Source: Bacilli bacterium (GTDB taxonomy: Bacteria > Bacillota_I > Bacilli_A > RFN20 > CAG-826). Taken from it: a DNA stretch of 64,000 nucleotides. How positions within the stretch are numbered: the first letter of the stretch is position 1; every line of letters starts with the position of its first letter. Below the pieces are notes generated by a model, which made no database searches, was not told the origin of the DNA, and saw only the letters and a program-made list of their open reading frames with translations. The position numbers were made by a program, and so were the translations under genes. Positions 6,173 through 47,129 of this stretch are shown one piece after another. The stretch lies in assembly GCA_024687185.1 (NCBI GenBank), contig JAILEX010000073.1:41-64040 (forward strand), written 5' to 3'.

Positions 6173-6186
6173 ACAAAACTATAGAT

Positions 6187-6219
6187 AAGGCTCCATCCTT
6201 GAACAGGCGGAGCCTTTTT
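6187..6219. terminator. Bidirectional terminator between convergent genes
   Basis: 8-bp stem AAGGCTCC/GGAGCCTT, with a T-run on the + strand and a T-rich tract on the - strand. It sits between the S8 protease stop and the U32 peptidase stop. Confidence 0.6.
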
Positions 6220-8291
6220 CAGACGATTTTGGTGGGGATTAGCCCTTTGGGAACTTCCCTAATAACCTTTTTCCCTTCTAAGAACATATAGCAGTTACGG
6301 AAATTGAGGGTATAGGTTCTGTCGTTGTCTTTTACTTCATAATGGTGCTTCGCGCATTTGCCGCATCCCTTGTTCTCCGCCCCATAGTATTTCCCAACGG
6401 GGCAATGCTTCGCGACCATCAAAGGTTCGTCGTATTCCTCCAAATAGCCTAGATTGGAATCTAGTTCCCCTAGCTTTAGGGAATTCTCGAAAGTGGATTC
6501 ATAGGAGAGGATAAGGGTATCGTAGGTGAGGTTACGGAAGAACTTGATGGCCTCGCTATTGGCGATGCCGAAATAGGGGGAGACGATCGATTCCTTCCCT
6601 ATTTCCCCTAGATGCAAGGCAAAGGGGGCCTTTTTTAATCTTCCATAATCGATTAGTCCGCCATAGACGTCTTTTTTAGGTAGCACTAGGCTTTCTCGCT
6701 CATTGGAATGGATGAACAAGGAGGGGTCATCGTTAAAGGGATAGGGGGAATAGACCCTCCAGACGTTTGTCTCTAGCCTTTCCTTTACTTCCTCAAGAAG
6801 AGACGAGCGCATCTTATTGATCGTGGCGATTGGGATATATAGTCCCTCCTCGTTTCTTATCTTGGTCTTCTTATAGAGGAAGGGCAGGCCATTGTTTTTG
6901 GAGAACTGGGCCAAGACGGCGTCGTCTTTGACGGTCTTCGCCTTCTCCAAAACCTCATTGAATTCCCTTCTTACCTTTATCTCCCCGACGTCGATTTCGA
7001 CTACCTGTCTCGCCTCTTTTAGCTCAACGTATAGGCTTCCCGTTTGGAAGAAGGGGTATTCGTATACCTTAAGTTCCTTGGCGATTTTACTAGAGGAAGT
7101 CTTATAGACCTTCGTCCCGGGAAGGACTTTTTCCTCCACGTCTATATAGACTATTCCACGACTGGATTTGACCATGTTCCCGTTTTCTATGATGCGGGTC
7201 ACGCTATAGCCATATTCCTTGCCGTTATTCACAAAGCGGATGCCATCGAGAAGGGAAAGCTCCTCGACGAGTTTCACCTTGACCTGTTTATTCCTATATT
7301 CGACGACTTTGCCGATATAGACGCCTTGGTGTTTGACCGTGGTATTGGTGGTGATGTCCCTATTGTCCTCTTTGAAGATATAGCCCTTTGTCTTTTCCCT
7401 AGAATAGGAGGCATATAGGTCAAGGAGCATCTCCTTTGGGACCCCTTCCTTTTTGCCCGCGTTAAAATCATCGATCAATTTGCGGTATACCTTGGTGACG
7501 GATGCGACGTATTCTAGCGATTTCGCCCTTCCCTCTATCTTTAGGGAAGTGACTCCCAAAGAGAGGAGTTCATGGATATGGTCGATGGTATTTAGGTCCT
7601 TCATCGAGAATAACGCTCCCTTGGTAAGGGGTAAGCCATCTTCTAGAAGGGAGTATTCCTGGCGGCATGGCTGGGCGCAGGAACCGCGGTTCCCGCTTCT
7701 TCCGCCTTTATAGTAGGAGAGGTAGCACATCCCAGAGAAGCAAAAGCAAAGCGCCCCATGGATGAAGATCTCCAAATCGACGCCTTCCTTTTTTAATTCC
7801 CTTATGTCTTCTAACGGAAGTTCCCTGGCCAAAACGACGCGGTTGACCCCGATCGATTTGAGGAAGCGGATATCGTCTAGGTTATGGACGCTGCATTGGG
7901 TCGAGATATGGAGCGGGAAATCAGGATAATGGGAACGAAGATAATGGACGACGCCAAAGTCCTGGACGATTAGGGCGTCCACATGGCGATAGAGGAAATC
8001 GATATAGGGTTTCACGTCCTCGAATTCGTCTTCGTAGATGAGCGTATTCAAGGTGATGTATATCTTTTTGCCATGGAGGTGGCAGAACCTTGCGGCCTCG
8101 ACGATCTCCTCGTCAGTAAGGTTATTGATGAAACTCCTCGCCCCAAAGCGTTTGCCGGCGCAATAAACCGCATCGGCACCATACCTTATGGCGACTTTGA
8201 CGGCTTCTAGGTTTCCGGCGGGGGCGAGCAGTTCGTTGATCATATCGGGTCCAATTATAGTTCCACTTCCTTCCTTTATCCATCTTGGCAA
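6219..8291 (-). CDS. Peptidase U32 family (collagenase-like) protein
   Basis: 690-aa ORF. N-terminus ELLAPAGNLEAVKVAIRYGADAVYCAGKRFGARS. U32 signature EIFIHGALCFCFSGMCYLS. Confidence 0.85.
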   Translation of the reverse strand: MPRWIKEGSGTIIGPDMINELLAPAGNLEAVKVAIRYGADAVYCAGKRFGARSFINNLTDEEIVEAARFCHLHGKKIYITLNTLIYEDEFEDVKPYIDFLYRHVDALIVQDFGVVHYLRSHYPDFPLHISTQCSVHNLDDIRFLKSIGVNRVVLARELPLEDIRELKKEGVDLEIFIHGALCFCFSGMCYLSYYKGGRSGNRGSCAQPCRQEYSLLEDGLPLTKGALFSMKDLNTIDHIHELLSLGVTSLKIEGRAKSLEYVASVTKVYRKLIDDFNAGKKEGVPKEMLLDLYASYSREKTKGYIFKEDNRDITTNTTVKHQGVYIGKVVEYRNKQVKVKLVEELSLLDGIRFVNNGKEYGYSVTRIIENGNMVKSSRGIVYIDVEEKVLPGTKVYKTSSSKIAKELKVYEYPFFQTGSLYVELKEARQVVEIDVGEIKVRREFNEVLEKAKTVKDDAVLAQFSKNNGLPFLYKKTKIRNEEGLYIPIATINKMRSSLLEEVKERLETNVWRVYSPYPFNDDPSLFIHSNERESLVLPKKDVYGGLIDYGRLKKAPFALHLGEIGKESIVSPYFGIANSEAIKFFRNLTYDTLILSYESTFENSLKLGELDSNLGYLEEYDEPLMVAKHCPVGKYYGAENKGCGKCAKHHYEVKDNDRTYTLNFRNCYMFLEGKKVIREVPKGLIPTKIV

Positions 8292-36527: not shown

Positions 36528-36559
36528 ATTTTTTCTTTTGGATTAAGGTAATCGCTTAG
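36528..36559 (+). repeat. Direct repeat copy L (left flank of the integrase gene)
   Basis: ATTTTTTCTTTTGGATTAAGGTAATCGCTTAG starts 9 nt after the ruvX stop. Its three blocks recur in the same order at 37764-37825. Confidence 0.6.
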
Positions 36560-36616
36560 CCTTGCCCCGACTTGATCGAAAAAGCTGGAAAGGGATGTAG
36601 GGCGGGCGTTTTTATT

Positions 36617-37753
36617 ATGCAAAAAGAAAATAACCCCAAGGTCTCTGGAATCAAATTAAAGGAAGATGGAACCTATTGCATCGACTGCGTCAAATTGCTG
36701 GAAGGGAAGAGGGCGCATATATATTCCTCTGGGTTTTCTAGCCTAGAGGAAGCTATGGAAGCCTTACCGATATTGGTGAAGAAAAAGGTCGAGGCATACG
36801 AGGAAAAACAGTACAAAAACATGACTTTTGCAGTGTTTTTCAAGAAATTCGACGATTATAGATTGCTTCATGTCAGGCTTTCTTCGGTTCAATTTTCTAG
36901 AAGCGTCGTGAATACCTATTGCCAAGGCTGGATGGAAATGGAGGCAAGGAAATGCTTTTCCTATAAGCAGATGGAAACCCTATATTCTTCCTTTCTTCGC
37001 CATCAGGGCGTGCCAAGTTGGAAAAACCGCTGCTTTGGCGTTTTTAGGCAAATGGCGGAGATGGCCTTCAAGTGGAGGATCATCGATTCCTCTTCCTACC
37101 AAGATGCCATGACGATATTCGAAAACATCCCCGAGAATAGGGGCGCAAAGAAGGAAAAGGACATATGGAATAAGAAGGAGAGGGAGCGGTTCTTCTCTTG
37201 CATCGAGGATGAGACCGATTTGGTCATCTTTTCCCTTCTTTCGACTTTGGGTCTGCGCATTGGCGAATTTTCTGGCCTTACATGGGATTGCTATGACGAG
37301 AAAAAGGGCGCGATGGAGATAAAGCAGCAGCTCATCTATGAGCAAAAGGGCAGGCGGATCTTGACGGGCCAGCTTAAGACGAGGGAGAGCTACCGCGTTT
37401 GTATCCTTCCCTCCAAGATGAACCAGATGCTAAGGGAATATAAGAAGAAGACCGAGGGCAAAGGCTTTATCTTCGCCTCGGACAGATCGGGGAATGACCC
37501 TTTGTCCAAATCCAGTCTTAGGAGGAAGTTATATTTTTATATAGAAAAGGCGGGCGTGAGAAAGATAACGCCCCATTCCTTCCGCCATGCCAAGGCAACG
37601 GCGTTAATGAAGGTATGCAAGAACATGCAGGAAGTAAAGGCCGCGGCCAGGTATCTAGGCCATAGCGCCACCATGATGATCGATACCTATGGGCATTCCG
37701 AGATGAGCGCGACGGAAGCGGTATTAAGAAGATTGGAAAAGGAAGAGGCCTAA
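36617..37753 (+). CDS. Tyrosine-type site-specific recombinase/integrase (phage integrase family)
   Basis: C-terminal catalytic motifs: LGLRIGEFSGLTW (Arg), ITPHSFRHAKAT (H-x-x-R) and LGHSATMMIDTYGH (His/Tyr). N-terminal small beta-rich arm-binding-like segment (GIKLKEDGTYCIDCVKLLEGKRAHIYSSGFSSLEEA). ATG 36617 is preferred over the upstream TTG at 36572, but the start is uncertain because no clear SD is present. Confidence 0.85.
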   Translation: MQKENNPKVSGIKLKEDGTYCIDCVKLLEGKRAHIYSSGFSSLEEAMEALPILVKKKVEAYEEKQYKNMTFAVFFKKFDDYRLLHVRLSSVQFSRSVVNTYCQGWMEMEARKCFSYKQMETLYSSFLRHQGVPSWKNRCFGVFRQMAEMAFKWRIIDSSSYQDAMTIFENIPENRGAKKEKDIWNKKERERFFSCIEDETDLVIFSLLSTLGLRIGEFSGLTWDCYDEKKGAMEIKQQLIYEQKGRRILTGQLKTRESYRVCILPSKMNQMLREYKKKTEGKGFIFASDRSGNDPLSKSSLRRKLYFYIEKAGVRKITPHSFRHAKATALMKVCKNMQEVKAAARYLGHSATMMIDTYGHSEMSATEAVLRRLEKEEA

Positions 37754-37763
37754 TCCATAACCA

Positions 37764-37825
37764 ATTTTTTCTTTTTGATAAATTTCGTTTAACGCATTTA
37801 GGTAATCTTTAATTTGACCGCTTAG
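37764..37825 (+). repeat. Direct repeat copy M (right flank of the integrase gene)
   Basis: ATTTTTTCTTTTTGAT matches copy L at 15/16. It is followed by an 18-nt insert, then TTAGGTAATC, an 11-nt insert, and CGCTTAG. Starts 10 nt after the integrase stop. Confidence 0.6.
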
Positions 37826-37854
37826 GATAATGGCGACCAAAAGGAGGATTCACC

Positions 37855-39711
37855 ATGAAATGCAATCGATCATTACTTAGGCTCGCACCCCTTGTCCTAT
37901 CCGGGGCATTGCTCGCTTCTTGCGGCAACATCTCCGCGAAAAACGCCCCGACTAACGATGATGGTGGCGGCAACACGACCGTAAACGTCTCCGATGCCGA
38001 ATCGATTACGATTGAGGAGGCAAGCGACGATATAAGCGAAAGCTTCTCCATCCAGGGCAACGATACCTCGACCCAAGAAGACGGTTCTTCCGCTTCCTCT
38101 AACGTCGAGAATAGCGATTCCAATATCATCCGTATCACCGAATACGGCACCTATACCTTGTCGGGACAGCTAAACGGGCAGATCTACATCGAATGCGAGG
38201 AAAACGAGAACGAAGACGACGTTGTCGAACTCGATTTGAATGGGCTCTCCCTTAGCTATGGGCAGAATTCGCCGATCTATATGATCTCTGGCAACGAACT
38301 AAAGATTAAGGCGTTAAAGGGAACCGATAATTTCATCTACGATACCCGTAGCGCCTATACCGCTGACGTAGAAGGCCAAGGAAAGGGCGCGATCTATTCC
38401 AAAGCCGATACAAAATTCGTAGGCACGGGGTCGCTAACCATAGTCGGAAACTACTATAACGGTGTCCATTGCACCAAAGACGTCAAGATCAAAAACCAGA
38501 CCCTTACCGTCAAGGCGAATAACCATGGTATCAAAGGCGAGGACTCCATCAAAATGGAGACCGGAAACGTGAACGTCATTGCCTATAATGGCGATGGTCT
38601 GCATAGCGAAAACACCGATTTGTCGAGTTCCAATAAGCAGCGGGGCAACATCGAAATCTATGGCGGCACCCTTAAGGTCCTCTCTTCCGGGGATGCCCTA
38701 GATGCGGCCTATGACCTAATCGTAAGCGATGGCACCGATGACGATGGCAATGCGACTTCCCCCGTTATCTATGCCTACACCAGCAAATACGCCAATGCAC
38801 AAAATAGCGACGTATCCGCTTCCTATTCGACTTCCACCTATAGCGACACCACTACCTATAACCGTCCAGGTGGCGGAGGCACGGGCGGAAATACCGGTGG
38901 CCCAGGAGGCGGCGGCATGGGCGGAGGCGGCATGGGCGGAGGCGGCATGGGCGGAGGTTCCTCCTCCCAAAAAGCCGATGAATCCGCGAAGGGTTATAAA
39001 GCCGCGAACACCATCACCATCAGCGGTGGCACTTCCACCCTATATACCTATGACGATGGCCTCCATGCCAATTATGGCGATACCTTCGAATCCGGCGGAA
39101 AAGGGGTAGGCGACATCAATATCAGCGGTGGCAAACTCACCATCAACGCAAGCGACGATGGCGTCCACGCAGACTCTAACCTCAATATCTCCGGCGGCAC
39201 GGTCAAAGTCGAGAGCTCCTATGAAGGGCTAGAAGGCAATTTGATCAACATCAGCGGTGGCGAATCCGTCGTCTATGCTAGCGACGACGCGGTAAACGCG
39301 GCTAACTGCGGCCCCAATAAGACCCCTGCCATCAAGGTCACCGGCGGATATCTGACCGCCTGCGTACCTTCTAATGGCGATGTCGATGGCATCGATAGCA
39401 ACGGCACCTATACCCAAATCGGCGGCGTCGTGGTCGTCTGTGGGCCAAGCAGTGAGATGGCCGCGGCCATGGATTGCGATGGCACGGCCTCGGTAAGTGG
39501 CGGTACCTTAGCGGTATTTGGCTATGCCAGGGTTAGCTCGAAAAGTGTCACCACTAGCAGCAAATCCGGTTCCTATAGCGGTGGCAGCGCCTATAAACTC
39601 ACCTTCGCCAATGGCAACGTGACCACAGGCACCTTGCTTAGCGGCTATACCTATAGCGGCTGCACCACCTATAGCAACCTTGGCACGCTTTCTTCCGTTA
39701 GCAAAGCCTAA
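37855..39711 (+). CDS. Cthe_2159-family (beta-helix, carbohydrate-binding-type) lipoprotein with a Gly/Met-rich linker
   Basis: 618 aa. Lipobox ALLASCGN and RBS AAAGGAGGA. Repeated beta-helix rungs typical of the family: ITEYGTYTLSGQLNGQIYIE, GSLTIVGNYYNGVHCTKDVKI, SAKGYKAANTITISGG, SYEGLEGNLINISGGESVVYASDDAVNAA. Internal linker GGGGMGGGGMGGGGMGGG. Confidence 0.8.
   Translation: MKCNRSLLRLAPLVLSGALLASCGNISAKNAPTNDDGGGNTTVNVSDAESITIEEASDDISESFSIQGNDTSTQEDGSSASSNVENSDSNIIRITEYGTYTLSGQLNGQIYIECEENENEDDVVELDLNGLSLSYGQNSPIYMISGNELKIKALKGTDNFIYDTRSAYTADVEGQGKGAIYSKADTKFVGTGSLTIVGNYYNGVHCTKDVKIKNQTLTVKANNHGIKGEDSIKMETGNVNVIAYNGDGLHSENTDLSSSNKQRGNIEIYGGTLKVLSSGDALDAAYDLIVSDGTDDDGNATSPVIYAYTSKYANAQNSDVSASYSTSTYSDTTTYNRPGGGGTGGNTGGPGGGGMGGGGMGGGGMGGGSSSQKADESAKGYKAANTITISGGTSTLYTYDDGLHANYGDTFESGGKGVGDINISGGKLTINASDDGVHADSNLNISGGTVKVESSYEGLEGNLINISGGESVVYASDDAVNAANCGPNKTPAIKVTGGYLTACVPSNGDVDGIDSNGTYTQIGGVVVVCGPSSEMAAAMDCDGTASVSGGTLAVFGYARVSSKSVTTSSKSGSYSGGSAYKLTFANGNVTTGTLLSGYTYSGCTTYSNLGTLSSVSKA
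38911..38955 (+). repeat. Perfect 15-bp tandem repeat x3 (coding, GGMGG units)
   Basis: GGCGGCATGGGCGGA is repeated three times head-to-tail, in frame within the lipoprotein gene. Confidence 0.9.
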
Positions 39712-39728
39712 GAAATCTAAATCCTTTG

Positions 39729-39764
39729 GAAGGCTCGCCTTAAGGCGGGTCTTCTTTTTTGTTT
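39729..39764 (+). terminator. Terminator separating the lipoprotein gene from the TIR-like/Nudix gene
   Basis: 11-bp stem GAAGGCUCGCC/GGCGGGUCUUC (with G-U pairs), UUAA loop, then TTTTTTGTTT. Confidence 0.7.
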
Positions 39765-39805
39765 CTTAGCGACTACAATATTCCCAAAGGGAAAGGGGTA
39801 AAACC

Positions 39806-41572
39806 ATGATTGAAGAGAAAATCGAGAATTACGATATCGATACCTTTATTTGCTATCGAAACGATCACCGTGTCTGCGCAGCAACCCTAAAAGAGGCGAT
39901 GAAAATCGATAAGATGCGCTATTATGGCAGGGTTTGGTATTCCAATTCCGAAGGCGGAGGAAACTATATCGATGGCATCGACCCCCTTTTGAAATCCGCG
40001 GAAAACGTCGTCTTGGTTTTGGCAAAAGGATTTACCGACCACTTTATCAAAGACGGCGAGGTCAACGACAACGACAATAAAATCGACGTGACCGCGACCA
40101 TTAAGGAACTACAGAAAATCGAGGAACTCCGCGAAGAGAATAACATCAAGATCTATGCGGTCAACGTCGATGGCTACTTTTTTGACGAAGAGGCGATGGA
40201 TGTGCTTATTAGGGCCATCATGCATTCCCCCAACGTCAAATCAAGCGAAGAGGAAATCCGTAAGGCCTGGGCCTTCCAGGGCAGAAACCCCTTGAAGCAA
40301 GAATATACCGTCTCCGATAAGAAGATGCTTATGTTCATGGAGGAAGAAGGACTCGCCTCCGCCTTGACCTTAAAATACATTAAGCCCAAGGAGGAGATAA
40401 CCTTCCTCGACCAAAATGACTACGACAAGGCGTTCTATCAGCTTGCAAAGGAAAAGAACAACCTGACCAACATCGCCTATTTCGGCTATGCCGGGGCGGT
40501 ATTTCTTCGCGAACTATTCGGTTCCACCTTTGGATACCGCGATAGGCAAAACGAGGAATATAAGGACATCAGAATACGTATATTGCTCCGCGATCCTATC
40601 ATTGAGGCGGAAGAAGAGAGGATGCAGGAGGTCAAAAAGGGCAGACGCCCAAGGAGAAAGAGCGCCGATATCCTAAAGACCTATCAGGAGATTAGGGAAA
40701 AAAGCGGGACCATCAGGCTCGATTGCCGTTTCTATTCCCATACCCCATATCTAAAGGGCGCGATATTCTGCGACAAAAACTGGGAACCCAGGGTCGGTTT
40801 GATCAATTTCGAATCCGCCTATGGCAAAGACTATATCAAAAAGGGCGGTTCCCCCTTTAAGGGCATCGATAGCGACATGATCTATTTCAATGGGGATTTA
40901 GAATATAACACCTCGACCATCAAGGCATTGAAAACGCTGATGACCCAGTTCGAATTCGACTGGAAAATGGGCAAAGCCCTCATCGATGAGGATGAGGTCT
41001 GCTCTCCATTATCCTTAGAATTAGAGGATCCCTATTACGATAGGGTTGATAGGGAAGCTTTGGGTTTAGGAGACCGTCCCGTCCGTCATTGTGTTAGGGG
41101 AATTATCGTCAACGAAAATGGCGAGATCGCCTTGCATCACTGCCATAGGGACGATAAATACGGCGACTTCGAATACTATGAACTCCCAGGTGGCGGATAT
41201 GCCGATAGCGAAGGAAGGGAGGACGAACTCCCCTTCGATGGATTAAAAAGAGAATGTGAGGAGGAATGCGGATTTAAGATCAAGCGCCTTGCCTATCTTG
41301 GGGAAGTCAAAGACGAATATAACCTCGCCGATAGGTTCAATTACCACTATGTCTTCTTGTGTAAACTTATTGGAGAGACAAAGAAGCATTTCGAGAGTGA
41401 GGGCGATAACTATATCCTCGACACCGATTTCTATCCTTTCCATACCGCGATAAAGATGCTTAAAAAACAACATCAAGACGGTTTTGCAGGGCTTGTTAGG
41501 CAAAGGGAACTGCCCTTCCTCGAACTTGCGGAAGAAGTATACGAAAATTTCTTCGAAGAGGAAGAAAATTGA
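39806..41572 (+). CDS. Three-part fusion protein: TIR-like N-terminal domain, uncharacterised middle domain, C-terminal Nudix hydrolase
   Basis: 588 aa with RBS AAAGGGGT.
- N-terminus has a TIR-like strand/helix pattern: DTFICYRNDH...AATLKEAM...VWYS...AENVVLVLAKGF...TIKELQKIEE.
- C-terminus has a Nudix fold start (VRGIIVNENGEIAL) and a Nudix box ending LKRECEEECGF, which matches R-E-U-x-E-E-x-G-U. The upstream Glu is at the canonical 7-residue spacing, with about 4 extra residues in the Gly-proximal half.
- The middle region (~aa 200-400; IRIRILLRDP, RFYSHTPYLKGAIF) is unassigned. Confidence 0.7.
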   Translation: MIEEKIENYDIDTFICYRNDHRVCAATLKEAMKIDKMRYYGRVWYSNSEGGGNYIDGIDPLLKSAENVVLVLAKGFTDHFIKDGEVNDNDNKIDVTATIKELQKIEELREENNIKIYAVNVDGYFFDEEAMDVLIRAIMHSPNVKSSEEEIRKAWAFQGRNPLKQEYTVSDKKMLMFMEEEGLASALTLKYIKPKEEITFLDQNDYDKAFYQLAKEKNNLTNIAYFGYAGAVFLRELFGSTFGYRDRQNEEYKDIRIRILLRDPIIEAEEERMQEVKKGRRPRRKSADILKTYQEIREKSGTIRLDCRFYSHTPYLKGAIFCDKNWEPRVGLINFESAYGKDYIKKGGSPFKGIDSDMIYFNGDLEYNTSTIKALKTLMTQFEFDWKMGKALIDEDEVCSPLSLELEDPYYDRVDREALGLGDRPVRHCVRGIIVNENGEIALHHCHRDDKYGDFEYYELPGGGYADSEGREDELPFDGLKRECEEECGFKIKRLAYLGEVKDEYNLADRFNYHYVFLCKLIGETKKHFESEGDNYILDTDFYPFHTAIKMLKKQHQDGFAGLVRQRELPFLELAEEVYENFFEEEEN

Positions 41573-41651: not shown

Positions 41652-42572
41652 ATGAAGATATATAACGACATCACCGAAATGGTGGGTCATACCCCCTTGT
41701 TAAGGCTAAGGGGCATCGAACGTTATTTTAAGGTAGAAGGCGAGATCTACGCCAAGGTAGAAAAGGGCAATCCGACCGGTTCGGTAAAGGATAGGGCGGC
41801 CTTGCAAATGATCCTAGACGCCGAAAAAGAGGGTAGGATCAAAGAAGGTTCCACCATCATCGAACCCACTTCCGGCAACACGGGAATCGGCTTGGCGGCC
41901 ATCGCGGCCGCTAGGGGCTATAAGGCCATTATCGTCATGCCCGATTCCATGTCCAGGGAAAGAAGGAACGCCATCTCTTTTTATGGCGCGGAAATCGTTT
42001 TGACCCCCGGCGCCCAGGGTATGAAGGGAGCCATTGCCAAAGCCGAGGAATTACATAAGGAAATTGCTGGTAGTATAATCGTGGGCCAATTTGTCAATCC
42101 AAGTAACGTGAAGGCCCATTATCAAACTACCGGTCCAGAGATTTATGATGACCTAGACGGCAAACTCGATTATTTCGTCGCGGGCATCGGCACGGGTGGC
42201 ACCATTACCGGCGTAGGCAAATACCTAAAGGAAAAGGATAAGGGCATCAAAATCGTCGGGGTCGAACCCGCCTCCTCGCCTTTATTGACCAAAGGAAGCG
42301 CCGGCCCGCATAAGATCCAAGGCATTGGCGCCAACTTCGTTCCGAAGATTCTTGATACGGCTTTATTGGATGAAATCGAAGACATAGGGGACGAGGATGC
42401 CTTACAATTATCGAGGTTATTGGCTAAAACCGATGGGTTGGCCGTCGGTATTTCTAGCGGAGCGGCATTATCCGCCGCCGTTAAGCTTAGCAAAGCCAAT
42501 CCGGGCAAAAGGGTGGTCGTCCTCCTTCCAGATGGGGTTGACCGCTATTACTCGACCGAATTATTCAACTAA
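41652..42572 (+). CDS. cysK: Cysteine synthase A (O-acetylserine sulfhydrylase)
   Basis: 306 aa. PLP-lysine context NPTGSVKDRAAL, SGNTGIGLA and GIGTGGTITG. Confidence 0.9.
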   Translation: MKIYNDITEMVGHTPLLRLRGIERYFKVEGEIYAKVEKGNPTGSVKDRAALQMILDAEKEGRIKEGSTIIEPTSGNTGIGLAAIAAARGYKAIIVMPDSMSRERRNAISFYGAEIVLTPGAQGMKGAIAKAEELHKEIAGSIIVGQFVNPSNVKAHYQTTGPEIYDDLDGKLDYFVAGIGTGGTITGVGKYLKEKDKGIKIVGVEPASSPLLTKGSAGPHKIQGIGANFVPKILDTALLDEIEDIGDEDALQLSRLLAKTDGLAVGISSGAALSAAVKLSKANPGKRVVVLLPDGVDRYYSTELFN

Positions 42573-42583
42573 GGAGCAAGACC

Positions 42584-43423
42584 ATGAAAGGAATAAGAAT
42601 CCTATCCGCCCAAGATGTCTCTTGCTATGGCCAATGTTCGTTGACCGTGGCGCTTCCGATACTTTCCGCTTTGGGGGTGGAAACCGCGATTTTACCGACC
42701 GCGATCCTCTCCACCCATACCGCCGGATTCACCGGCTTTACCTTCCATGACCTCCAAGAGGAACTCCCCAAAATCAAGGCCCATTGGGAAAAGGAAGGCA
42801 TCCGCTTCGATGCCGTCTACACGGGCTATTTGGGCAGCAAAAAAGACGTTGATATCGTTATTGATATCGCTACTTCCCCGTTAAATAAAGGACCCCTAAT
42901 CGTCGATCCCGCATTCGGGGACCATGGCAAACTCTATGGTGGCTTCGATTTGGATTACGTTAACGAGATGAAGCTACTTTGCGCCAAATCCGACGTCTTG
43001 CTTCCCAATCTTACCGAGGCCGCGTTCCTATTGGACCGTCCCTTTAACCCCGAGCCTAGCGAAGGGGAAATCGAGGAAATATTAGATGGCTTAACCAAAC
43101 TGGGCGCCAAATCCATCGTATTGAAGGGTATCGGCTCTAGACCCGTCGATACCGGGGTCATCGTGAAAAACGGGTCCCTCATCCAAGCCTATTCCCATCA
43201 TAAGATCCCCCAGGATTTCCATGGGACGGGCGATATCTTCGCCTCCGTCTTCGTCGGGGCCAGGCTTAGGGGGCTAAGCGATATCGCCTCCGCCCAACTC
43301 GCCGCCGATTTCGTCAGCAGGGCCATCACCAATACGTTGGACGACCCCAAACACTTCTATGGCGTGAAGTTCGAACCGCTTTTGGTGGACCTCGCGGAAG
43401 AAGTCAGGGAATTGACCGAATAG
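42584..43423 (+). CDS. pdxK: Pyridoxal/pyridoxamine kinase
   Basis: 279 aa. N-terminus ILSAQDVSCYGQCSLTVALPILSALG, YTGYLGS, and C-terminal GTGDIFASVF (ribokinase-fold anion hole). Ends with TAG. Confidence 0.8.
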   Translation: MKGIRILSAQDVSCYGQCSLTVALPILSALGVETAILPTAILSTHTAGFTGFTFHDLQEELPKIKAHWEKEGIRFDAVYTGYLGSKKDVDIVIDIATSPLNKGPLIVDPAFGDHGKLYGGFDLDYVNEMKLLCAKSDVLLPNLTEAAFLLDRPFNPEPSEGEIEEILDGLTKLGAKSIVLKGIGSRPVDTGVIVKNGSLIQAYSHHKIPQDFHGTGDIFASVFVGARLRGLSDIASAQLAADFVSRAITNTLDDPKHFYGVKFEPLLVDLAEEVRELTE

Positions 43424-43516
43424 AACCTCTCCTTTTTAAAGGAGCGTATTTCATCTTTTTGAAACAAAGGTATAATCCCTTTGCGAGTTTTTTAATCTCG
43501 GCCGAGGTAAATAGAT

Positions 43517-45928
43517 ATGAGTTACGACTTCAAGACCATCGAAAAGAAGTGGAGACGCTACTACGAGGAACATAACACCTTCCATTGCGACGTCCACGAT
43601 TTCAGCAAACCCAAATATTATGCGTTGGATATGTTCCCCTATCCTTCCGGGCAGGGGCTCCATGTCGGCCATCCAGAAGGCTATACCGCCACCGACATCG
43701 TCTCCAGGATGAAGAGGATGCAGGGCTACAACGTCCTCCACCCGATGGGTTGGGACGCCTTTGGCTTGCCCGCGGAGCAATTCGCGATCGCCAATAATTC
43801 CCATCCTGAGGAATTCACCAGGAAGAACATCGCCAAATTCAAGGATCAAATCCAATCCCTAGGGCTGAGCTATGACTGGTCCAAGGAATTCGCGACCATC
43901 GACGAGGGTTACTACAAGTGGACCCAATGGATATTCTTACAGCTTTTCAAACACGATCTTGCCTATGTCGCCGACATCCCCGTCAACTATTGCCCCGACC
44001 TCGGCACCGTTTTGGCCAACGAAGAGGTGATCGATGGCAAATCCGAACGCGGTGGCTATCCCGTTATCCGCATGCCCATGAGGCAATGGGTTTTGAAAAT
44101 CACCGAATACGCCGATAAATTGGACCAAGACCTAGAGCTTTTGGATTGGCCTAAATCCACCTTGGAGATGCAGCGCAACTGGATTGGCAGAAGCGAAGGC
44201 GTCGAAATCGAATTCAAATTCGCGGGCAGCGAGGAATCCTTCCGCGTCTTCACCACCCGCGTCGATACCCTGTTTGGCTGCACCTATTGTTGCCTAGCCC
44301 CCGAGCATCCTCTTGTCAAGAAACTAGTTAGCAAAGCCCAGGAAAAGGAAGTCCTCGCCTATGTCGAGGCCACCGCGAGGAAGAGCGAACTCTCCCGTAC
44401 CATGGGCGAAGATAAGGAAAAGACCGGCGTTTATTTGGGCATCGATGCCATTAACCCGATAAATGGGAAGAAGATTCCCGTCTATGTCGCCGACTACGTC
44501 TTAGGCTCCTATGGAACCGGTGCCGTCATGGCTGTTCCCGCCCACGACGAAAGGGACTATGAATTCGCCAAGGTGCATAACCTCGAAATGATTCAGGTCT
44601 TAGAGGGCGATATCTCCGAAAGCGCGATGATTGAGGATGGCAAGCACATCAATAGCGAATTCGCCGACGGTTTGGATATCGCGGGCGCCAAAGCGGCCAT
44701 CACCAAGAAACTAGAGGAACTAGGCGCTGGCAAACGCGTCATTAACTACAAACTCCGCGACTGGATCTTCTCCCGTCAGCGTTATTGGGGCGAGCCTATC
44801 CCGGTCGTCACCCTGGACGATGGCACCGAATTCCCCGTCCCCGAGGACCAGCTCCCCGTCTCCCTTCCCGAGATGGAGAACTATCAGCCTTCGCGCAACG
44901 GCAAACCCCCGCTTTCCCTTGCCCCAAGTGCATGGCTAGACTATGAAACCCCGGATGGAAGGAAGGGGAAAAGGGAAACCAACACCATGCCCCAATGGGC
45001 TGGCAGCTCCTGGTACTATATCCGCTATATCGATCCCAACAACAACGATGAGATCGCCGAAAAGAAGCTCATGGACCATTGGCTCCCCGTCGACTTATAT
45101 GTCGGTGGCGCCGAACACGCCGTCTTGCATTTGCTCTATGCGAGGTTCTGGCATAAGTTCCTTTACGATATCGGCGTAGTTTCCTGCAAGGAACCCTTCA
45201 AGAAGGTCTTCCACCAAGGAATGATCTTAGGCGCCAACGGCGAAAAGATGAGCAAGAGCAGGGGCAACGTCGTCAATCCCGACGATATCATCAACTCCAG
45301 CGGCGCGGACTCCTTAAGGCTATTTGAGATGTTCGCGGGCCCGCTTGAATCCGAAAAGCCCTGGTCCACCACCGGCATCGATGGCGCCTATCGCTTCATC
45401 GCCCGCGTCTTCCGCCTAGTGGACGAGCCCGAATTCAAGGAAAGGCATAGCGAGAACAATAGCGGCGAACTCGATTATTCCTATAACTTCCTCGTAAAGA
45501 AAGTCACCGGCGACTTCGAATCGCTTAACTTCAATACCGCCATCTCCGCGATGATGGTCTTCATCAACGATTGCTACAAAGCCAAGACCATCTACCGTCC
45601 CTATTTGGAGGGATTCGTGAAGATGTTTAGCTGCGTCTGCCCCTTCGCTGGCGAAGAGATGTGGGAAAAACTCGGCCACAAGGACTGCATCGACTATGAA
45701 GCCTGGCCGACCTATGATGAATCCAAACTCAAGAAAGAGACCATCCAAATGGCGGTCTCGGTCAACGGCAAAACCCGCGACGTCATGGAATTCCCCACCG
45801 ACATCGACCAAGAAGGCGCCGTCAAGGCGGCGATGGACAATCCCCGCATCCAGCTCTTCCTCGAAGGGAAGACCGTGCGCAAAGTCATCTTCGTCAAGGG
45901 AAGGATCCTCAATATCGTCGTAGGATAA
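43517..45928 (+). CDS. leuS: Leucyl-tRNA synthetase
   Basis: 803 aa. HIGH-type motif [21 protein letters not shown] motif and a CP1 editing-domain region. No T-box-sized leader. Confidence 0.95.
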
Positions 45929-45938
45929 AAGGGAATCT

Positions 45939-47129
45939 ATGGTCCAACTCGCGCTTTATGGCGAAAATACGCTTCTAGGCAAGATGCTTGTATCGCTCCT
46001 TAGGAAGGAGGGGTATGAGCTTTCGATTTTGACTGATGAGTTCGACCAAAAGGCGATCGAGGAGAGCAAGATGGTCCTCTTCCTCCTCCCTAGGAAACTA
46101 GATGAGGACAAGAAGATCCACGAGGAGGTTTTGGACTTCGTTTTGAAAACCCTCTCGGGGCTTAGGAAAAGGATCCCCGTCCTCTACGTCTCCTTCGAGG
46201 GGAAGAAGTACGAAAGCCTCAACAGGATGATCGAATCCTATGAGAAACCCTGTTTCATCCATTACCTCCATACCCTCATCGAAGACAAGACGATGCTGCC
46301 CAACTATTCCTATTTCGAAGACCTCATCATGAGCTTCATCAATGGGTATGAAAACGAAAAAGAGGACACCCATACATTCGAATTCGAAAACGATATCGCC
46401 GAAAGGATATTGAACGAAGTCGTCTCCTACTTCGAATATCCCCGCCTGCCAAAGAAAGCCCAGATCATCGACTTGGGCGGCAGCATCACCTATTCGGAGA
46501 GGGAGATCTTCGATAAGCTATCTAATTTCAAAGGCATCATCGAGGACAAGGAAAAGAGGATGCCCCTACTTGGCAACTATTTCGATTCGGTTTTGTTTTG
46601 CTCCTATTTGCTTCTGGCTAGCGACATCGAGGAACCCGTCTACGATTACCAATATAAGGGCTTTTACGTTAGGGAATTATTCAAATACCAGGATATCGGC
46701 ACCTATCTTCTATTGATCGGCGACCCTTATGAGACCTTCTCCAGGGTCAATAGCAAAGACGTAACCGCCAAATACCTCACGGTTTTCGGTAACGTCTCCT
46801 ATTCCAAGAGGAAGAAAAACCGCAAAGACTTCAAGGTCGAGGTGCTCAATAGCGCCAATCCCCAATTCTATGAAGTGCCCCCTTCCTATTCCGTCGCCAT
46901 CACCCCAATGAAGGGGAAGGCCGTCGTTTTGTGTTACTTCGATAAGGTCCTTTCGCCAAGTTCGGACGAATTCATCTCCGCGGGAATCGGGGAAGGACGC
47001 GATACCTTCTATAACGAACTTTATTCCCCCGAGCAGCAAAATCCCTATAAGGCCATCAACAAGATGGTGAAGCTACAAAAGGAAACCTATGGGGATGAAA
47101 GCGGCAGAAAGGATGGCAAGCCAAAATGA
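45939..47129 (+). CDS. Hypothetical protein (degenerate Rossmann-like N-terminus), translationally coupled to ugd
   Basis: 396-aa ORF with coding-like composition. The N-terminus LALYGENTLLGKMLVSLLRKEGYEL resembles an NAD(P)-binding epimerase start, but the Gly motif is degenerate. The stop overlaps the ugd start (ATGA). Confidence 0.5.
   Translation: MVQLALYGENTLLGKMLVSLLRKEGYELSILTDEFDQKAIEESKMVLFLLPRKLDEDKKIHEEVLDFVLKTLSGLRKRIPVLYVSFEGKKYESLNRMIESYEKPCFIHYLHTLIEDKTMLPNYSYFEDLIMSFINGYENEKEDTHTFEFENDIAERILNEVVSYFEYPRLPKKAQIIDLGGSITYSEREIFDKLSNFKGIIEDKEKRMPLLGNYFDSVLFCSYLLLASDIEEPVYDYQYKGFYVRELFKYQDIGTYLLLIGDPYETFSRVNSKDVTAKYLTVFGNVSYSKRKKNRKDFKVEVLNSANPQFYEVPPSYSVAITPMKGKAVVLCYFDKVLSPSSDEFISAGIGEGRDTFYNELYSPEQQNPYKAINKMVKLQKETYGDESGRKDGKPK

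Follow-up and report, generated by a model that had tools for sequence, protein, structure and literature searches.

In the immunity of bacteria, plants and animals alike, TIR NADases fused to sensor domains play a central part. In TIR-STING, TIR-SAVED (Cap; CBASS / type III CRISPR) and SARM1, a TIR NADase shares one polypeptide chain with a regulatory or ligand-binding domain that drives its assembly. A similar arrangement is encoded in the 64,000-nucleotide stretch of Bacilli DNA analysed here (the window), by a gene whose product joins an N-terminal TIR domain to a middle domain, hereafter M, and a C-terminal Nudix hydrolase; for this protein we infer that assembly would likewise be induced, by a ligand. 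However, its regulatory slot is occupied by M, which is probably PLD-like and is neither STING, SAVED nor ARM/SAM, and a hydrolase (Nudix or HAD) is built in, unlike in these three systems. Moreover, unlike TIR-STING and TIR-SAVED, the window locus and the homologous loci encode no cyclase or other signal generator nearby. In Thoeris (ThsB TIR and ThsA), NAD+ is the substrate of a bacterial TIR domain whose Glu is conserved, and by its sequence the window TIR domain likewise appears to have the conserved Glu; however, the window protein has a single-chain architecture, a ThsA-like partner (SIR2/SLOG or Macro-TM) is absent from the window and from the homologous loci, and no PADLOC match to Thoeris was obtained.

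The M family may also be likened, by logic and with no claim of homology, to PUA-Calcineurin-CE-HAD (PUA-Cal-HAD), in which a sensor triggered by a DNA-breakdown nucleotide that infection releases is combined with interchangeable effectors, TIR included, and with an accessory HAD phosphatase (PMC12871103). The M family differs in that it lacks PUA and calcineurin, has M in the sensor slot and TIR or a two-transmembrane (2-TM) module as the effector, and includes Nudix, DeoC aldolase and PfkB kinase among its accessory enzymes. Finally, in NadM (NMNAT-Nudix) and in giant-virus KptA-Nudix, a Nudix domain is found in cis with an NAD-utilising domain, which makes or uses a compound of the ADP-ribose type and whose product it is presumed to process (PMC9503650); there the partner is an adenylyltransferase or an ART, whereas in the window protein it is a TIR domain. 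Text searches of the literature on DUF5919, on DeoC/PfkB in defence and on TIR-Nudix fusions found neither a description of the TIR-M-Nudix architecture nor any TIR-X-Nudix precedent. The TIR-M-Nudix protein is a rare three-part protein and belongs to an undescribed, mix-and-match (modular) family.

Gene and chromosomal setting

The TIR-M-Nudix ORF (39806..41572, forward strand) is complete, with an ATG start and with the stop codon inside these coordinates, and it encodes 588 aa, exactly as given in the preliminary description of this DNA; the motifs quoted there (FICY, AENVVLVLAKGF, TIKELQKIEE, IRIRILLRDP, RFYSHTPYLKGAIF and LKRECEEECGF) are all present. NCBI lists the identical product as MCR5079252.1 ('MAG: NUDIX domain-containing protein [Bacilli bacterium]'). 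Full-length homologues from four other metagenomic Bacilli lineages (P0002-P0005) align with it end to end, at 78, about 52-53, 51 and 46% identity, respectively, and the alignment of the five family members contains 200+ invariant columns spread across all three parts. Such conservation indicates a real gene rather than a chance ORF.

The gene had been described as a stand-alone transcription unit with its own ribosome-binding site and a -10-like element. A Shine-Dalgarno-like stretch, GGAAAGGGG (39790-39798), and the sequence TACAAT (39774-39779) do precede the ORF, but a consensus promoter scan of the upstream region returned no sigma-70-type site. Similarly, a strong intrinsic-terminator-like hairpin with a T-run (39728..39765, forward strand; hairpin 39728-39755, with a 12-bp stem, 7 G-C pairs and the tail TTTTTTGTTTC) ends the upstream 618-aa gene, but no terminator-like site was detected between the TIR-M-Nudix gene and cysK, 80 nt downstream, and a stand-alone unit is therefore not established.

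Between RuvX and the TIR-M-Nudix gene, and outside the TIR-M-Nudix unit, lies an insertion specific to the window (36572..39711, forward strand), comprising a tyrosine-integrase-like ORF (36572-37753, forward strand) and an ORF for a 618-aa Gly-rich lipoprotein-like protein (37855-39711, forward strand). In tblastn searches of three homologous loci (L001-L003), neither protein was found, whereas RuvX, PdxK and LeuRS were all recovered, and in L001 the TIR-M-Nudix gene begins 45 nt past RuvX. No att-like direct repeats flanking the ~3.3-kb insertion were detected. Downstream, the backbone (41652..45928) encodes CysK (41652-42572), a PdxK-type kinase (42584-43423) and LeuRS (43517-45928), all on the forward strand; identity to the window proteins in L001, L002 and L003 is 93, 84 and 84% for LeuRS and 85, 73 and 63% for PdxK. 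In four of the five genomes the gene occupies one syntenic position (RuvX ... [CysK] PdxK, LeuRS, UDP-glucose dehydrogenase, pantothenate kinase), and the idea that it sits in an integrase-associated islet was abandoned after this comparison. The divergence of the gene (78/53/51%) resembles that of neighbouring non-essential genes, e.g. UDP-glucose dehydrogenase (66/46/49%), as vertical inheritance would predict. No defence genes occur near the window gene or its syntenic homologues; both here and at four homologous loci the neighbours are housekeeping genes, in agreement with the earlier remark that the vicinity holds no partner of the ThsA-like, STING, SAVED or Argonaute kind.

The TIR, M and Nudix domains

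On sequence evidence, the N-terminus (39833..40255, forward strand; about aa 10-150) is a divergent TIR domain, from a SARM1-like subfamily in which one Glu does not vary. The window protein itself matches Pfam TIR_2 (PF13676) over aa 14-122 with E=0.034 and 15.1 bits, and the other four members of the family score 13.8-15.9 bits, i.e. under the gathering cutoff of 28, which is an operational threshold and not a structural definition; a weak TIR_2 match is common to four of the five members. Searching 1.84 billion representatives with the family profile yielded 65 relatives that share only the N-domain (E<=1e-3), 17 of which match TIR_2 at E<=0.01 (best 9.8e-10); among ten sampled relatives, eight match it with E between 1e-5 and 4e-3, in alignments that begin from profile position 1-2. 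A direct search of PDB sequences with the full window protein returned marginal matches only. With a 47-sequence profile of the N-domain, 12 of the 13 PDB matches are TIR-1, SARM1, RPS4 and AbTir (E 0.006-1.1), the closest solved structures being SARM1/TIR-1. The conserved motifs of this part are the FICYR strand, WYS, GNY and T98..E101, and E101, Y17, R18 and F80 are invariant in the 47-sequence alignment. Glu101 (codon 40106..40108, forward strand), the candidate catalytic glutamate, is placed by the full-length model within a predicted helix (93-112) that follows the third strand (67-72). We infer its equivalence to SARM1 E642 from the spacing and context of the motif (TIKE-L versus WVHKE642-I), as the HMM alignment from the PDB search stops just short of Glu101. 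In the full-length model, which was built from five sequences and is of low confidence here (pLDDT 41-53 for aa 1-60), the predicted succession of strands and helices in aa 10-139 would suit the alternating strand-helix pattern of a flavodoxin-like fold. The proposal of a TIR-type N-terminus with a Glu at the catalytic position is thus supported by the TIR_2 matches of the relatives, by the profile matches to SARM1/TIR-1 and by the invariance of E101; the latter also suggests an active TIR domain, which probably cleaves NAD+. Elsewhere, this TIR subfamily is joined, in architectures that typify conflict systems, to NACHT (10 proteins), nSTAND NTPase5 (8), NPHP3_N and HD_3, as well as to TPR, WD40, LRR and Sel1 repeats.

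The middle domain M (40391..41005, forward strand; about aa 196-400, ~200 aa) is unannotated. The preliminary description could not assign it, and no Pfam family matches M in the window protein, in the family members or in the 2TM-M relatives. The domain is conserved and rich in invariant Arg, Lys and Glu, with a GGS loop; L260, R262, E267, R281, K285, P314, G347-G348-S349, F382 and W386 are invariant in an alignment of 36 sequences. The AF2 model of M (pLDDT 84.2, pTM 0.85) suggests that the fold is probably PLD-like: the top four Foldseek matches in the PDB all possess the PLD fold (FAM83 DUF1669, 4urj; vaccinia F13; PLD3; PPK), at weak scores (E 5e-3 to 0.15, TM 0.34-0.46). The best of them is the non-catalytic FAM83 domain, and M resembles such PLD pseudo-enzymes in its best structural match, whereas the HKD histidine is absent from it. 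In particular, of the HxK(x)4D motif K317 is nearly invariant, no His is found two residues before it, and H312 varies among the 36 sequences; the clade of the window protein shows a vestigial K(x5)D(x7)GxxN pattern. A PLD catalytic function was therefore dropped. Neither a search of PDB sequences with the M profile nor a Foldseek search of viral predicted structures with the M model produced any match.

The tentative likeness to DUF5919 proposed in the preliminary description finds no statistical support. Three of the five family members show weak collinear matches to this family (PF19319; E 0.055-0.19, about 13 bits), but the cutoff is 23.5. None of the 28 2TM-M proteins matches it, hhalign of the M profile with a shallow, four-sequence DUF5919 alignment was not significant (E=0.14), and neither was hhalign of the M and N profiles with a TIR-like-DUF5919 protein encoded at one of the related loci (L016). 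Because of the sub-cutoff scores and the non-significant hhalign, we do not file M under DUF5919. As an analogy the comparison is nevertheless fitting, and remote homology is possible: DUF5919 occupies the same slot in the TIR-like protein of L016, where a genuine TIR-like-DUF5919 protein and a phosphatase stand in tandem with TIR-M and HAD.

The C-terminus (41081..41551, forward strand; about aa 426-582) is, by its sequence, a bona fide Nudix hydrolase domain with an intact catalytic helix, followed by a conserved C-terminal helix. Pfam NUDIX (PF00293) matches aa 430-554 with E=1.9e-8 and 34.8 bits, over the cutoff of 21.1, and P0003-P0005 score 50-60 bits; this and the intact helix bear out the Nudix assignment made earlier from the REUxEE core. 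Foldseek with the full-length model, which is of low confidence, retrieved Nudix structures only (best E=1.3e-6) and is therefore uninformative on the other two domains. The Nudix box region (41189..41275, forward strand; aa 462-490) contains the catalytic helix R482-E483-C-E-E486-E487-C-G489-F, of which all five family members share R482, E483, E486, E487 and G489 without exception. The signature GX5EX7REUXEEXGU is exact in P0003-P0005; the alignment indicates that in the window protein and P0002 a 5-residue loop insertion before the helix alters the G-x5-E spacing, although the window protein retains both an intact REUXEEXGU helix and the upstream Glu. In the family alignment the C-terminal motif GF.GL..QRELPFL.L does not vary. 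As to specificity, sequence searches assign the domain to a generic MutT/RppH/Ap4A-like type with no ADPR- or NAD-specific signature. All NCBIfam equivalogs score far under their cutoffs, the best being of the MutT, RppH and YtkD types; models of YffH/AdpP and NAD diphosphatase match just two of the five members (E 1e-4 to 3e-4); and the profile search of the PDB found MutT/Nudix proteins, Ap4A hydrolase and RppH, the best match being the uncharacterised MutT/Nudix protein 2azw. An ADPR-specific Nudix (ADPR pyrophosphatase or NADH pyrophosphatase) was dropped, as the subfamily signal is wanting in the equivalog and PDB profile searches, and the notion of a producer and an eraser of NAD-derived nucleotides in one protein is, with this generic Nudix and no ADPR-pyrophosphatase equivalog, a conjecture.

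Relatives with exchanged modules

In other genomes M is joined either to the TIR subfamily of the window protein or to a membrane module with two TM segments (2-TM); in nearly all cases it has a phosphohydrolase (Nudix, HAD or His-phosphatase) as a fusion partner or neighbour, and a DeoC-type aldolase and a PfkB-type kinase often accompany it. Single-chain TIR-M-HAD proteins are represented by P0007, L012 and L013, whereas in L015/L016 TIR-M is followed by an overlapping HAD gene and in L019 by an overlapping Nudix gene. The L019 cluster has 14 members on more than 60 contigs, and we therefore regard the split form, TIR-M plus Nudix, as real. Among the 2TM-M proteins, DeoC-PfkB lies upstream in L007, L011 and L022, and other orders are DeoC-2TM-M-HAD (L017), 2TM-M-HAD-DeoC (L020) and PfkB-2TM-M-His-phosphatase (L023). 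P0043 combines TIR_2, Peripla_BP_4 (a sugar-binding fold), HAD_2 and PfkB in one polypeptide, and in L016 the genes for TIR-like-DUF5919 and for an inositol-monophosphatase-family protein are located directly upstream of TIR-M and HAD. A functional tie of the window gene to the adjacent PdxK-type kinase, by comparison with PfkB beside 2TM-M, was considered and judged a probable coincidence, since the kinase is a standard pyridoxal-kinase-family protein of the conserved backbone and CysK intervenes in two genomes.

The neighbourhoods vary by locus. Defence or mobility genes surround the relatives in L008 (NERD and AspBHI/Mrr), L011 (a SMODS gene 1.5 kb away), L019 (TraG and ClpP), L020 (an Mrr-type nuclease and MobA/TraG/ParB) and L022 (an AbiJ_NTD3-AAA ATPase), whereas the surroundings of the window gene and three homologues are housekeeping. 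The family is very sporadic, with a handful of clusters among 5.8 billion proteins; scans for loci with one narrow conserved peptide pattern gave two in genomes and five in metagenomes. No relatives were found by tblastn among annotated plasmids and phages or by pattern scans of viral contigs. The PADLOC check recommended at the outset identified no known system beyond one generic Nudix model: no model of PADLOC-DB v2 (Thoeris, CBASS effectors or others) matches the TIR or M part, the Nudix part weakly matches the candidate PDC-S07 (E=5e-5), and ten network relatives gave no match at all.

Possible functions of the TIR-M-Nudix protein

As the best explanation, plausible but tentative, we propose that the TIR-M-Nudix protein acts in conflict as a ligand-gated effector that depletes NAD and carries a nucleotide-processing enzyme on its single chain. 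M would be the regulatory or sensor module, with a phosphorylated sugar or a nucleotide-type compound as its ligand and with control over self-assembly; assembly driven by M would switch on the TIR domain and lead to the cleavage of NAD+, as in TIR-STING, TIR-SAVED and SARM1, while the 2-TM versions would damage the membrane instead. The Nudix domain would process a nucleoside-diphosphate-X compound tied to the TIR switch. It could clear the activating ligand, thereby setting the threshold or resetting the switch, or it could destroy the ADP-ribose made by the TIR domain, so that the loss of NAD+ could not be reversed, e.g. by phage ADPR-recycling pathways such as that of NARP1, which rebuilds NAD+ from ADPR (PMC13464706). 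Overall, the protein would be an abortive-infection or dormancy effector, now fixed in the chromosome backbone of this lineage of Bacilli.

Several observations support such a role in conflict: the identities of the three domains, the fusion of the TIR subfamily to NACHT, STAND NTPases, repeat sensors and HD_3, the swapping of domains at each slot among the relatives, the accessory or mobile neighbourhoods of L008, L011, L019, L020 and L022, the parallel TIR-like-DUF5919 module of L016 with its inositol-monophosphatase-family gene, and the published precedents of PUA-Cal-HAD and NARP1. A further one is the presence of a known ligand-binding fold, the sugar-binding Peripla_BP_4, in the M slot of P0043. 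On the other hand, the conflict role is opposed by the housekeeping synteny in four of the five genomes, the vertical-looking divergence and the lack of defence genes nearby, by the lack of PADLOC matches and of copies on annotated plasmids, phages and viral contigs, by the sub-cutoff TIR_2 score of the protein itself, the low-confidence N-terminal model and the weak PLD-like match, and by a Nudix domain with no ADPR- or NAD-specific signature. It is possible, if doubtful, that M is a new sensor domain for a 'danger metabolite' of the pentose-phosphate/ADP-ribose type and heads an undescribed class of metabolite-gated abortive-infection systems, in which a TIR NADase or a 2-TM module does the killing and Nudix, HAD, His-phosphatase, DeoC and PfkB set the trigger threshold or, in the TIR-M-Nudix form, may destroy ADP-ribose instead, in which case NAD+ reconstitution by phages would fail to rescue the cell.

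The same synteny and vertical-looking divergence, together with the PADLOC result, also speak for a physiological role outside immunity, as an enzyme that turns over NAD or nucleotides, i.e. a regulated catabolic or salvage device of small-genome gut-associated Bacilli. The TIR domain would then strip NAD+ or another nucleotide of its base, the ADP-ribose-type product would be split by the Nudix domain into AMP and pentose phosphate, and M would serve as an allosteric domain that senses pentose phosphate; DeoC, PfkB, the HAD and His phosphatases and Peripla_BP_4 of the relatives are classic proteins of sugar-phosphate and nucleoside catabolism. Nonetheless, we regard such a device as unlikely: M is also fused to 2-TM modules with no obvious catalytic role, relatives adjoin restriction, Abi and conjugation genes, fusions of the TIR subfamily elsewhere are to STAND NTPases and repeat sensors, the distribution of the family is extremely sporadic, and slot-by-slot shuffling of domains is typical of conflict systems (as argued in PMC12871103).

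The self-limiting signalling enzyme suggested in the preliminary description, in which the Nudix domain would erase a messenger (of the cyclic-ADPR type or otherwise derived from ADPR) made by the TIR domain of the same chain, appears improbable. The coexistence of a conserved-Glu TIR and an intact Nudix on one chain is compatible with it, and Nudix, HAD and related phosphoesterases have been proposed to process ADPr derivatives when coupled to NAD-utilising domains (PMC9503650). However, none of the loci inspected encodes, close by, a receptor or effector that could respond to such a signal, and the Nudix domain does not belong to an ADPR-specific type. Moreover, HAD replaces Nudix in some TIR-M proteins and M pairs with 2-TM modules where TIR is absent; the hydrolase therefore tracks M and not the product of the TIR domain.

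A regulated Nudix 'house-cleaning' or RNA 5'-end enzyme, for instance in two-step decapping of NAD-RNA (TIR removing nicotinamide and Nudix then the ADPR cap, with a precedent in AbTir, which takes nicotinamide off NAD-capped RNA, and NudC, which then completes decapping; PMC10937652) or with TIR as an oligomerisation scaffold only, is very improbable despite the MutT, RppH, YtkD and Ap4A-hydrolase types among the best Nudix matches and the housekeeping context of the gene, as otherwise equivalent proteins have HAD, His-phosphatase or no fused hydrolase in place of Nudix, which is at odds with cap removal, the Pfam search of the window protein detected no RNA-binding domain, and the invariant Glu argues for an active TIR domain.

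The TIR-M-Nudix family, with its candidate new sensor domain and built-in nucleotide hydrolase, offers a compact single-gene test case for what TIR NADases sense and how their accidental firing is avoided. Judging by its natural variants (fused or split, with Nudix or HAD, with TIR or 2-TM, aldolase and kinase present or absent), the ligand would be a sugar phosphate or a nucleotide. If the protein is indeed a ligand-gated conflict effector, the clearance of a metabolite in cis would be an added design principle of immune effectors, and the family might show how hosts counter the recycling of NAD+ by phages. Should the protein instead be a housekeeping NAD-catabolic enzyme, a catalytic TIR domain would here serve bacteria in an unusual way, outside immunity.

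The gene and its neighbourhood

The open reading frame for the 588-aa TIR-M-Nudix protein, in which M is a middle domain (~aa 196-400), lies exactly where the preliminary description had placed it, at 39806..41572 on the plus strand, with an ATG start. Its upstream signals were likewise recovered: the ribosome-binding-like stretch GGAAAGGGG is found seven bases 5' of the ORF, TACAAT is present at 39774-39779, and a strong terminator-like hairpin with a 12-bp stem and a T-run (39728-39755) closes the upstream gene. The consensus promoter scan detected no sigma-70-type site before the gene, and no terminator-like site occurs in the 80 nt that separate it from cysK, so that the proposed independent transcription unit is plausible at its 5' end and unproven at its 3' end. 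The GC content of the gene (0.46-0.48) is in line with its surroundings. NCBI lists the identical protein as MCR5079252.1, "MAG: NUDIX domain-containing protein [Bacilli bacterium]". Among 5.8 billion proteins, a word-indexed search yielded only four other full-length relatives (78, 52, 51 and 46% identity), all of ~580-590 aa and with invariant columns throughout the alignment. As judged from these comparisons, the gene is real and very rare, and it is under selection from end to end.

At three loci with window-like synteny (L001-L003) the homologous gene comes after RuvX and before a PdxK-type kinase; LeuRS is next, and UDP-glucose dehydrogenase (UDPGDH), pantothenate kinase, an ECF component and an M20 peptidase are encoded further along. 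In L001 the gene begins 45 nt after RuvX. Identities to the window in L001, L002 and L003, respectively, are 93, 84 and 84% for LeuRS, 87, 81 and 78% for RuvX, 85, 73 and 63% for PdxK, 78, 53 and 51% for the TIR-M-Nudix protein, and 66, 46 and 49% for UDPGDH. The conserved synteny and these values indicate, at the level of sequence, that the gene is part of the vertically inherited backbone and that it evolves like a non-essential gene. The more distant relatives P0005 and P0006 adjoin a ClpP, large-protein, TraG-type block instead. Between LeuRS and UDPGDH the window also carries a conserved 396-aa ORF (45939-47129), whose counterparts in L001-L003 (399, 384 and 418 aa; 64% identical in L001) have no Pfam match on record.

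The "integrase islet" to which the gene had been assigned is in fact a separate, window-specific insertion of 3.3 kb (36572-39711) between RuvX and the TIR-M-Nudix gene. It comprises a tyrosine-integrase-like ORF (36572-37753) and a Gly-rich ORF of 618 aa with a lipoprotein signal (37855-39711), both absent from all three homologous loci. The Gly-rich ORF has internal repeats, with GGGMGGGGM runs at ~38860-38955. A 19-nt near-repeat (36528-36546 and 37764-37782, 89% identical) flanks the integrase gene alone, and no att-like repeats were found around the whole insertion.

Three domains of a single chain

The TIR_2 match of the window protein is under threshold (E=0.034; 15.1 versus 28 bits), and it is likewise weak in four of the five family members. 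The TIR assignment proposed earlier is carried by their relatives. When 1.84 billion representatives were searched exhaustively with a profile built from residues 1-425 of the five homologues, 97 proteins were recovered, 65 of which match the N-domain alone. TIR_2 is found at E<=0.01 in 17 of these 65 (best 9.8e-10), and in 8 of 10 sampled mid-range relatives at E 1e-5 to 4e-3, each match beginning at the start of the profile. An alignment of 47 N-domain sequences contains four invariant residues (Y17, R18, F80 and E101), and the corresponding profile matches in the PDB almost solely TIR NADases (E from 0.006 upward), including C. elegans TIR-1, human SARM1, RPS4 and AbTir. The full-length model, the only one to cover the N-domain and of low confidence over it, puts E101 in the helix that follows strand three, and the context of this residue is similar to SARM1 WVHKE642; from motif and spacing we infer that E101 is the equivalent of SARM1 E642. 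From this transitive evidence we conclude that the window protein belongs to the TIR superfamily and that its N-terminus is, at the level of sequence, a divergent TIR domain of SARM1-like kind that keeps the catalytic-type Glu. The same subfamily is elsewhere fused to NACHT, other STAND NTPases and repeat sensors. Among the N-domain relatives P0009-P0101 it is also joined to DUF6273 (7 proteins), GDPD phosphodiesterase (3), HD_3 (1) and FtsK-type modules, which add to the phosphoesterase pairings.

The M domain has no match in Pfam. It occurs without TIR in 28 relatives, almost all of which begin with two transmembrane helices and a conserved P..W linker (2TM-M). In an alignment of 36 M sequences, L260, R262, E267, R281, K285, P314, G347-G348-S349, F382 and W386 are invariant and E271, K317, K352 and Q381 nearly so, while the His singled out in the preliminary description (H312) is not conserved. 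The AlphaFold2 model built from this alignment is confident (pLDDT 84.2, pTM 0.85), and its four best PDB matches are all of the PLD fold (FAM83 pseudo-PLD domain, vaccinia F13, PLD3 and the polyphosphate kinase C-domain), with weak scores (E 5e-3 to 0.15, TM 0.34-0.46). Thus modelled, M lacks the HKD motif and is probably PLD-like; its conserved surface is strongly charged and would lend itself to the binding of a phosphate ligand. The likeness to DUF5919 suggested in the preliminary description finds weak support: collinear matches occur in three of the five family members but are under threshold, and hhalign of M against true DUF5919 sequences was not significant. Membership of M in either the PLD superfamily or DUF5919 is unproven.

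The Nudix call stands: aa 430-554 match Pfam NUDIX above the cutoff (34.8 versus 21.1 bits), and the catalytic helix is intact, with R482, E483, E486, E487 and G489 invariant among homologues. The exact GX5EX7REUXEEXGU box is present in three more distant homologues, and the window protein and its homologue P0002 carry a five-residue insertion in the loop preceding the helix. A structure search with the full-length model matched solely Nudix enzymes. The protein belongs to the Nudix superfamily, and the domain is, from its sequence, probably active. Profile searches gave generic MutT, RppH, YtkD and Ap4A-hydrolase-type matches, all far under equivalog cutoffs; a signal specific to ADPR or NAD was absent.

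A family with interchangeable slots

The main new result is the wider family, in which the slots of the TIR-M-Nudix protein are interchangeable. TIR-M-HAD occurs as a single chain of 622-623 aa in Staphylococcaceae and Clostridia MAGs (P0007, L012, L013), and TIR-M is followed by an overlapping HAD gene in L015/L016. In L019 the gene that follows and overlaps TIR-M encodes a Nudix orthologue of the C-terminus of the window protein; the cluster has 14 members, seen on more than 60 contigs. In this commoner P0006 lineage (L019, 7140-7260) the TIR-M ORF stops at a TGA within ...AAAATGAGC..., and the Nudix ORF starts either 31 nt upstream or at an ATG that is part of an ATGA overlap. Compared with the single chain of the window, this is a natural point of gene fission or fusion. 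In L016, four consecutive genes (2215-6315) encode a TIR-like-DUF5919 protein (392 aa; Pfam DUF5919 E=1.4e-10) and an inositol-monophosphatase-family protein (264 aa), directly upstream of TIR-M (418 aa) and HAD (237 aa), which looks like two parallel modules of TIR, sensor-like domain and phosphatase in tandem. The N-domain relative P0043 (986 aa, metagenomic) combines TIR_2, Peripla_BP_4, HAD_2 and PfkB in a single chain, with Peripla_BP_4, a recognised sugar-binding fold, in the slot held elsewhere by M.

The 2TM-M proteins form an apparently undescribed recurrent cassette with a DeoC-type aldolase, a PfkB kinase and/or a phosphatase: DeoC-PfkB-2TM-M (L007, L011, L022), DeoC-2TM-M-HAD (L017), 2TM-M-HAD-DeoC (L020) and PfkB-2TM-M-histidine phosphatase (L023); HAD is also present in L014. 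Start and stop codons of the cassette genes often overlap. Several cassettes adjoin restriction, Abi or conjugation genes; accessory or mobile neighbours in the family include an Mrr-type nuclease with MobA/TraG/ParB, an AbiJ-N-terminal AAA ATPase, a SMODS gene, and NERD with AspBHI/Mrr. The network of the TIR-M-Nudix protein has no PADLOC match, the M protein of 2TM-M also lacks Pfam annotation, and no description of the TIR/2TM-M network was found in the searchable literature.

Possible function

Our preferred reading, still a tentative one, is that of an M-gated TIR conflict effector with a Nudix domain that processes its ligand or product. The analysis shows the domain identities, the conserved Glu, the intact Nudix helix and the network of fusions and neighbours. 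In the scheme built on these, every functional step of which we infer, M would act as a sensor or drive assembly: TIR and 2TM, two killing-type modules unrelated to each other, both have it as their constant partner, and a known ligand-binding domain can stand in for it. Its ligand would probably be a phosphorylated pentose or nucleotide-type compound, given the enzymes that are linked to it: phosphatases, Nudix, an aldolase of the deoxyribose-phosphate type and a kinase of the ribokinase family. The activated TIR would deplete NAD+, and the Nudix domain may either clear the ligand, setting the threshold or resetting the switch, or destroy the ADP-ribose product. The latter would have a rationale in phage NARP1, which rebuilds NAD+ from ADPR (PMC13464706). 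A published precedent is PUA-Calcineurin-HAD, in which the effectors joined to the sensor are interchangeable and HAD is an accessory; m6-dAMP, a product of chromosome breakdown, is the trigger (PMC12871103).

The catabolic nature of the linked enzymes, and the conserved housekeeping synteny, would also suit a non-immune enzyme of NAD or nucleotide catabolism or regulation, which we regard as unlikely though worth serious consideration. Signalling by a TIR producer and a Nudix eraser, as put forward in the preliminary description, is improbable, as the hydrolase tracks M and not TIR and no receptor is encoded nearby. Still less probable is a regulated Nudix or NAD-RNA decapping role, which has a biochemical precedent in AbTir followed by NudC (PMC10937652) but is at odds with the HAD and His-phosphatase substitutions.

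For the M-gated effector, the closest working likeness would be the single-chain sensor-TIR effectors TIR-STING, TIR-SAVED and SARM1. However, the window protein has another sensor domain and no signal generator nearby, and thus falls outside these families. Thoeris is ruled out, as there is no ThsA. On the preferred reading, the protein would be a conflict effector built on TIR, in which both the candidate sensor domain and the theme of accessory enzymes are new. The housekeeping context of the window copy tempers its interest; the TIR-M-Nudix architecture and the network around it seem not to have been described before, and both are open to direct testing.
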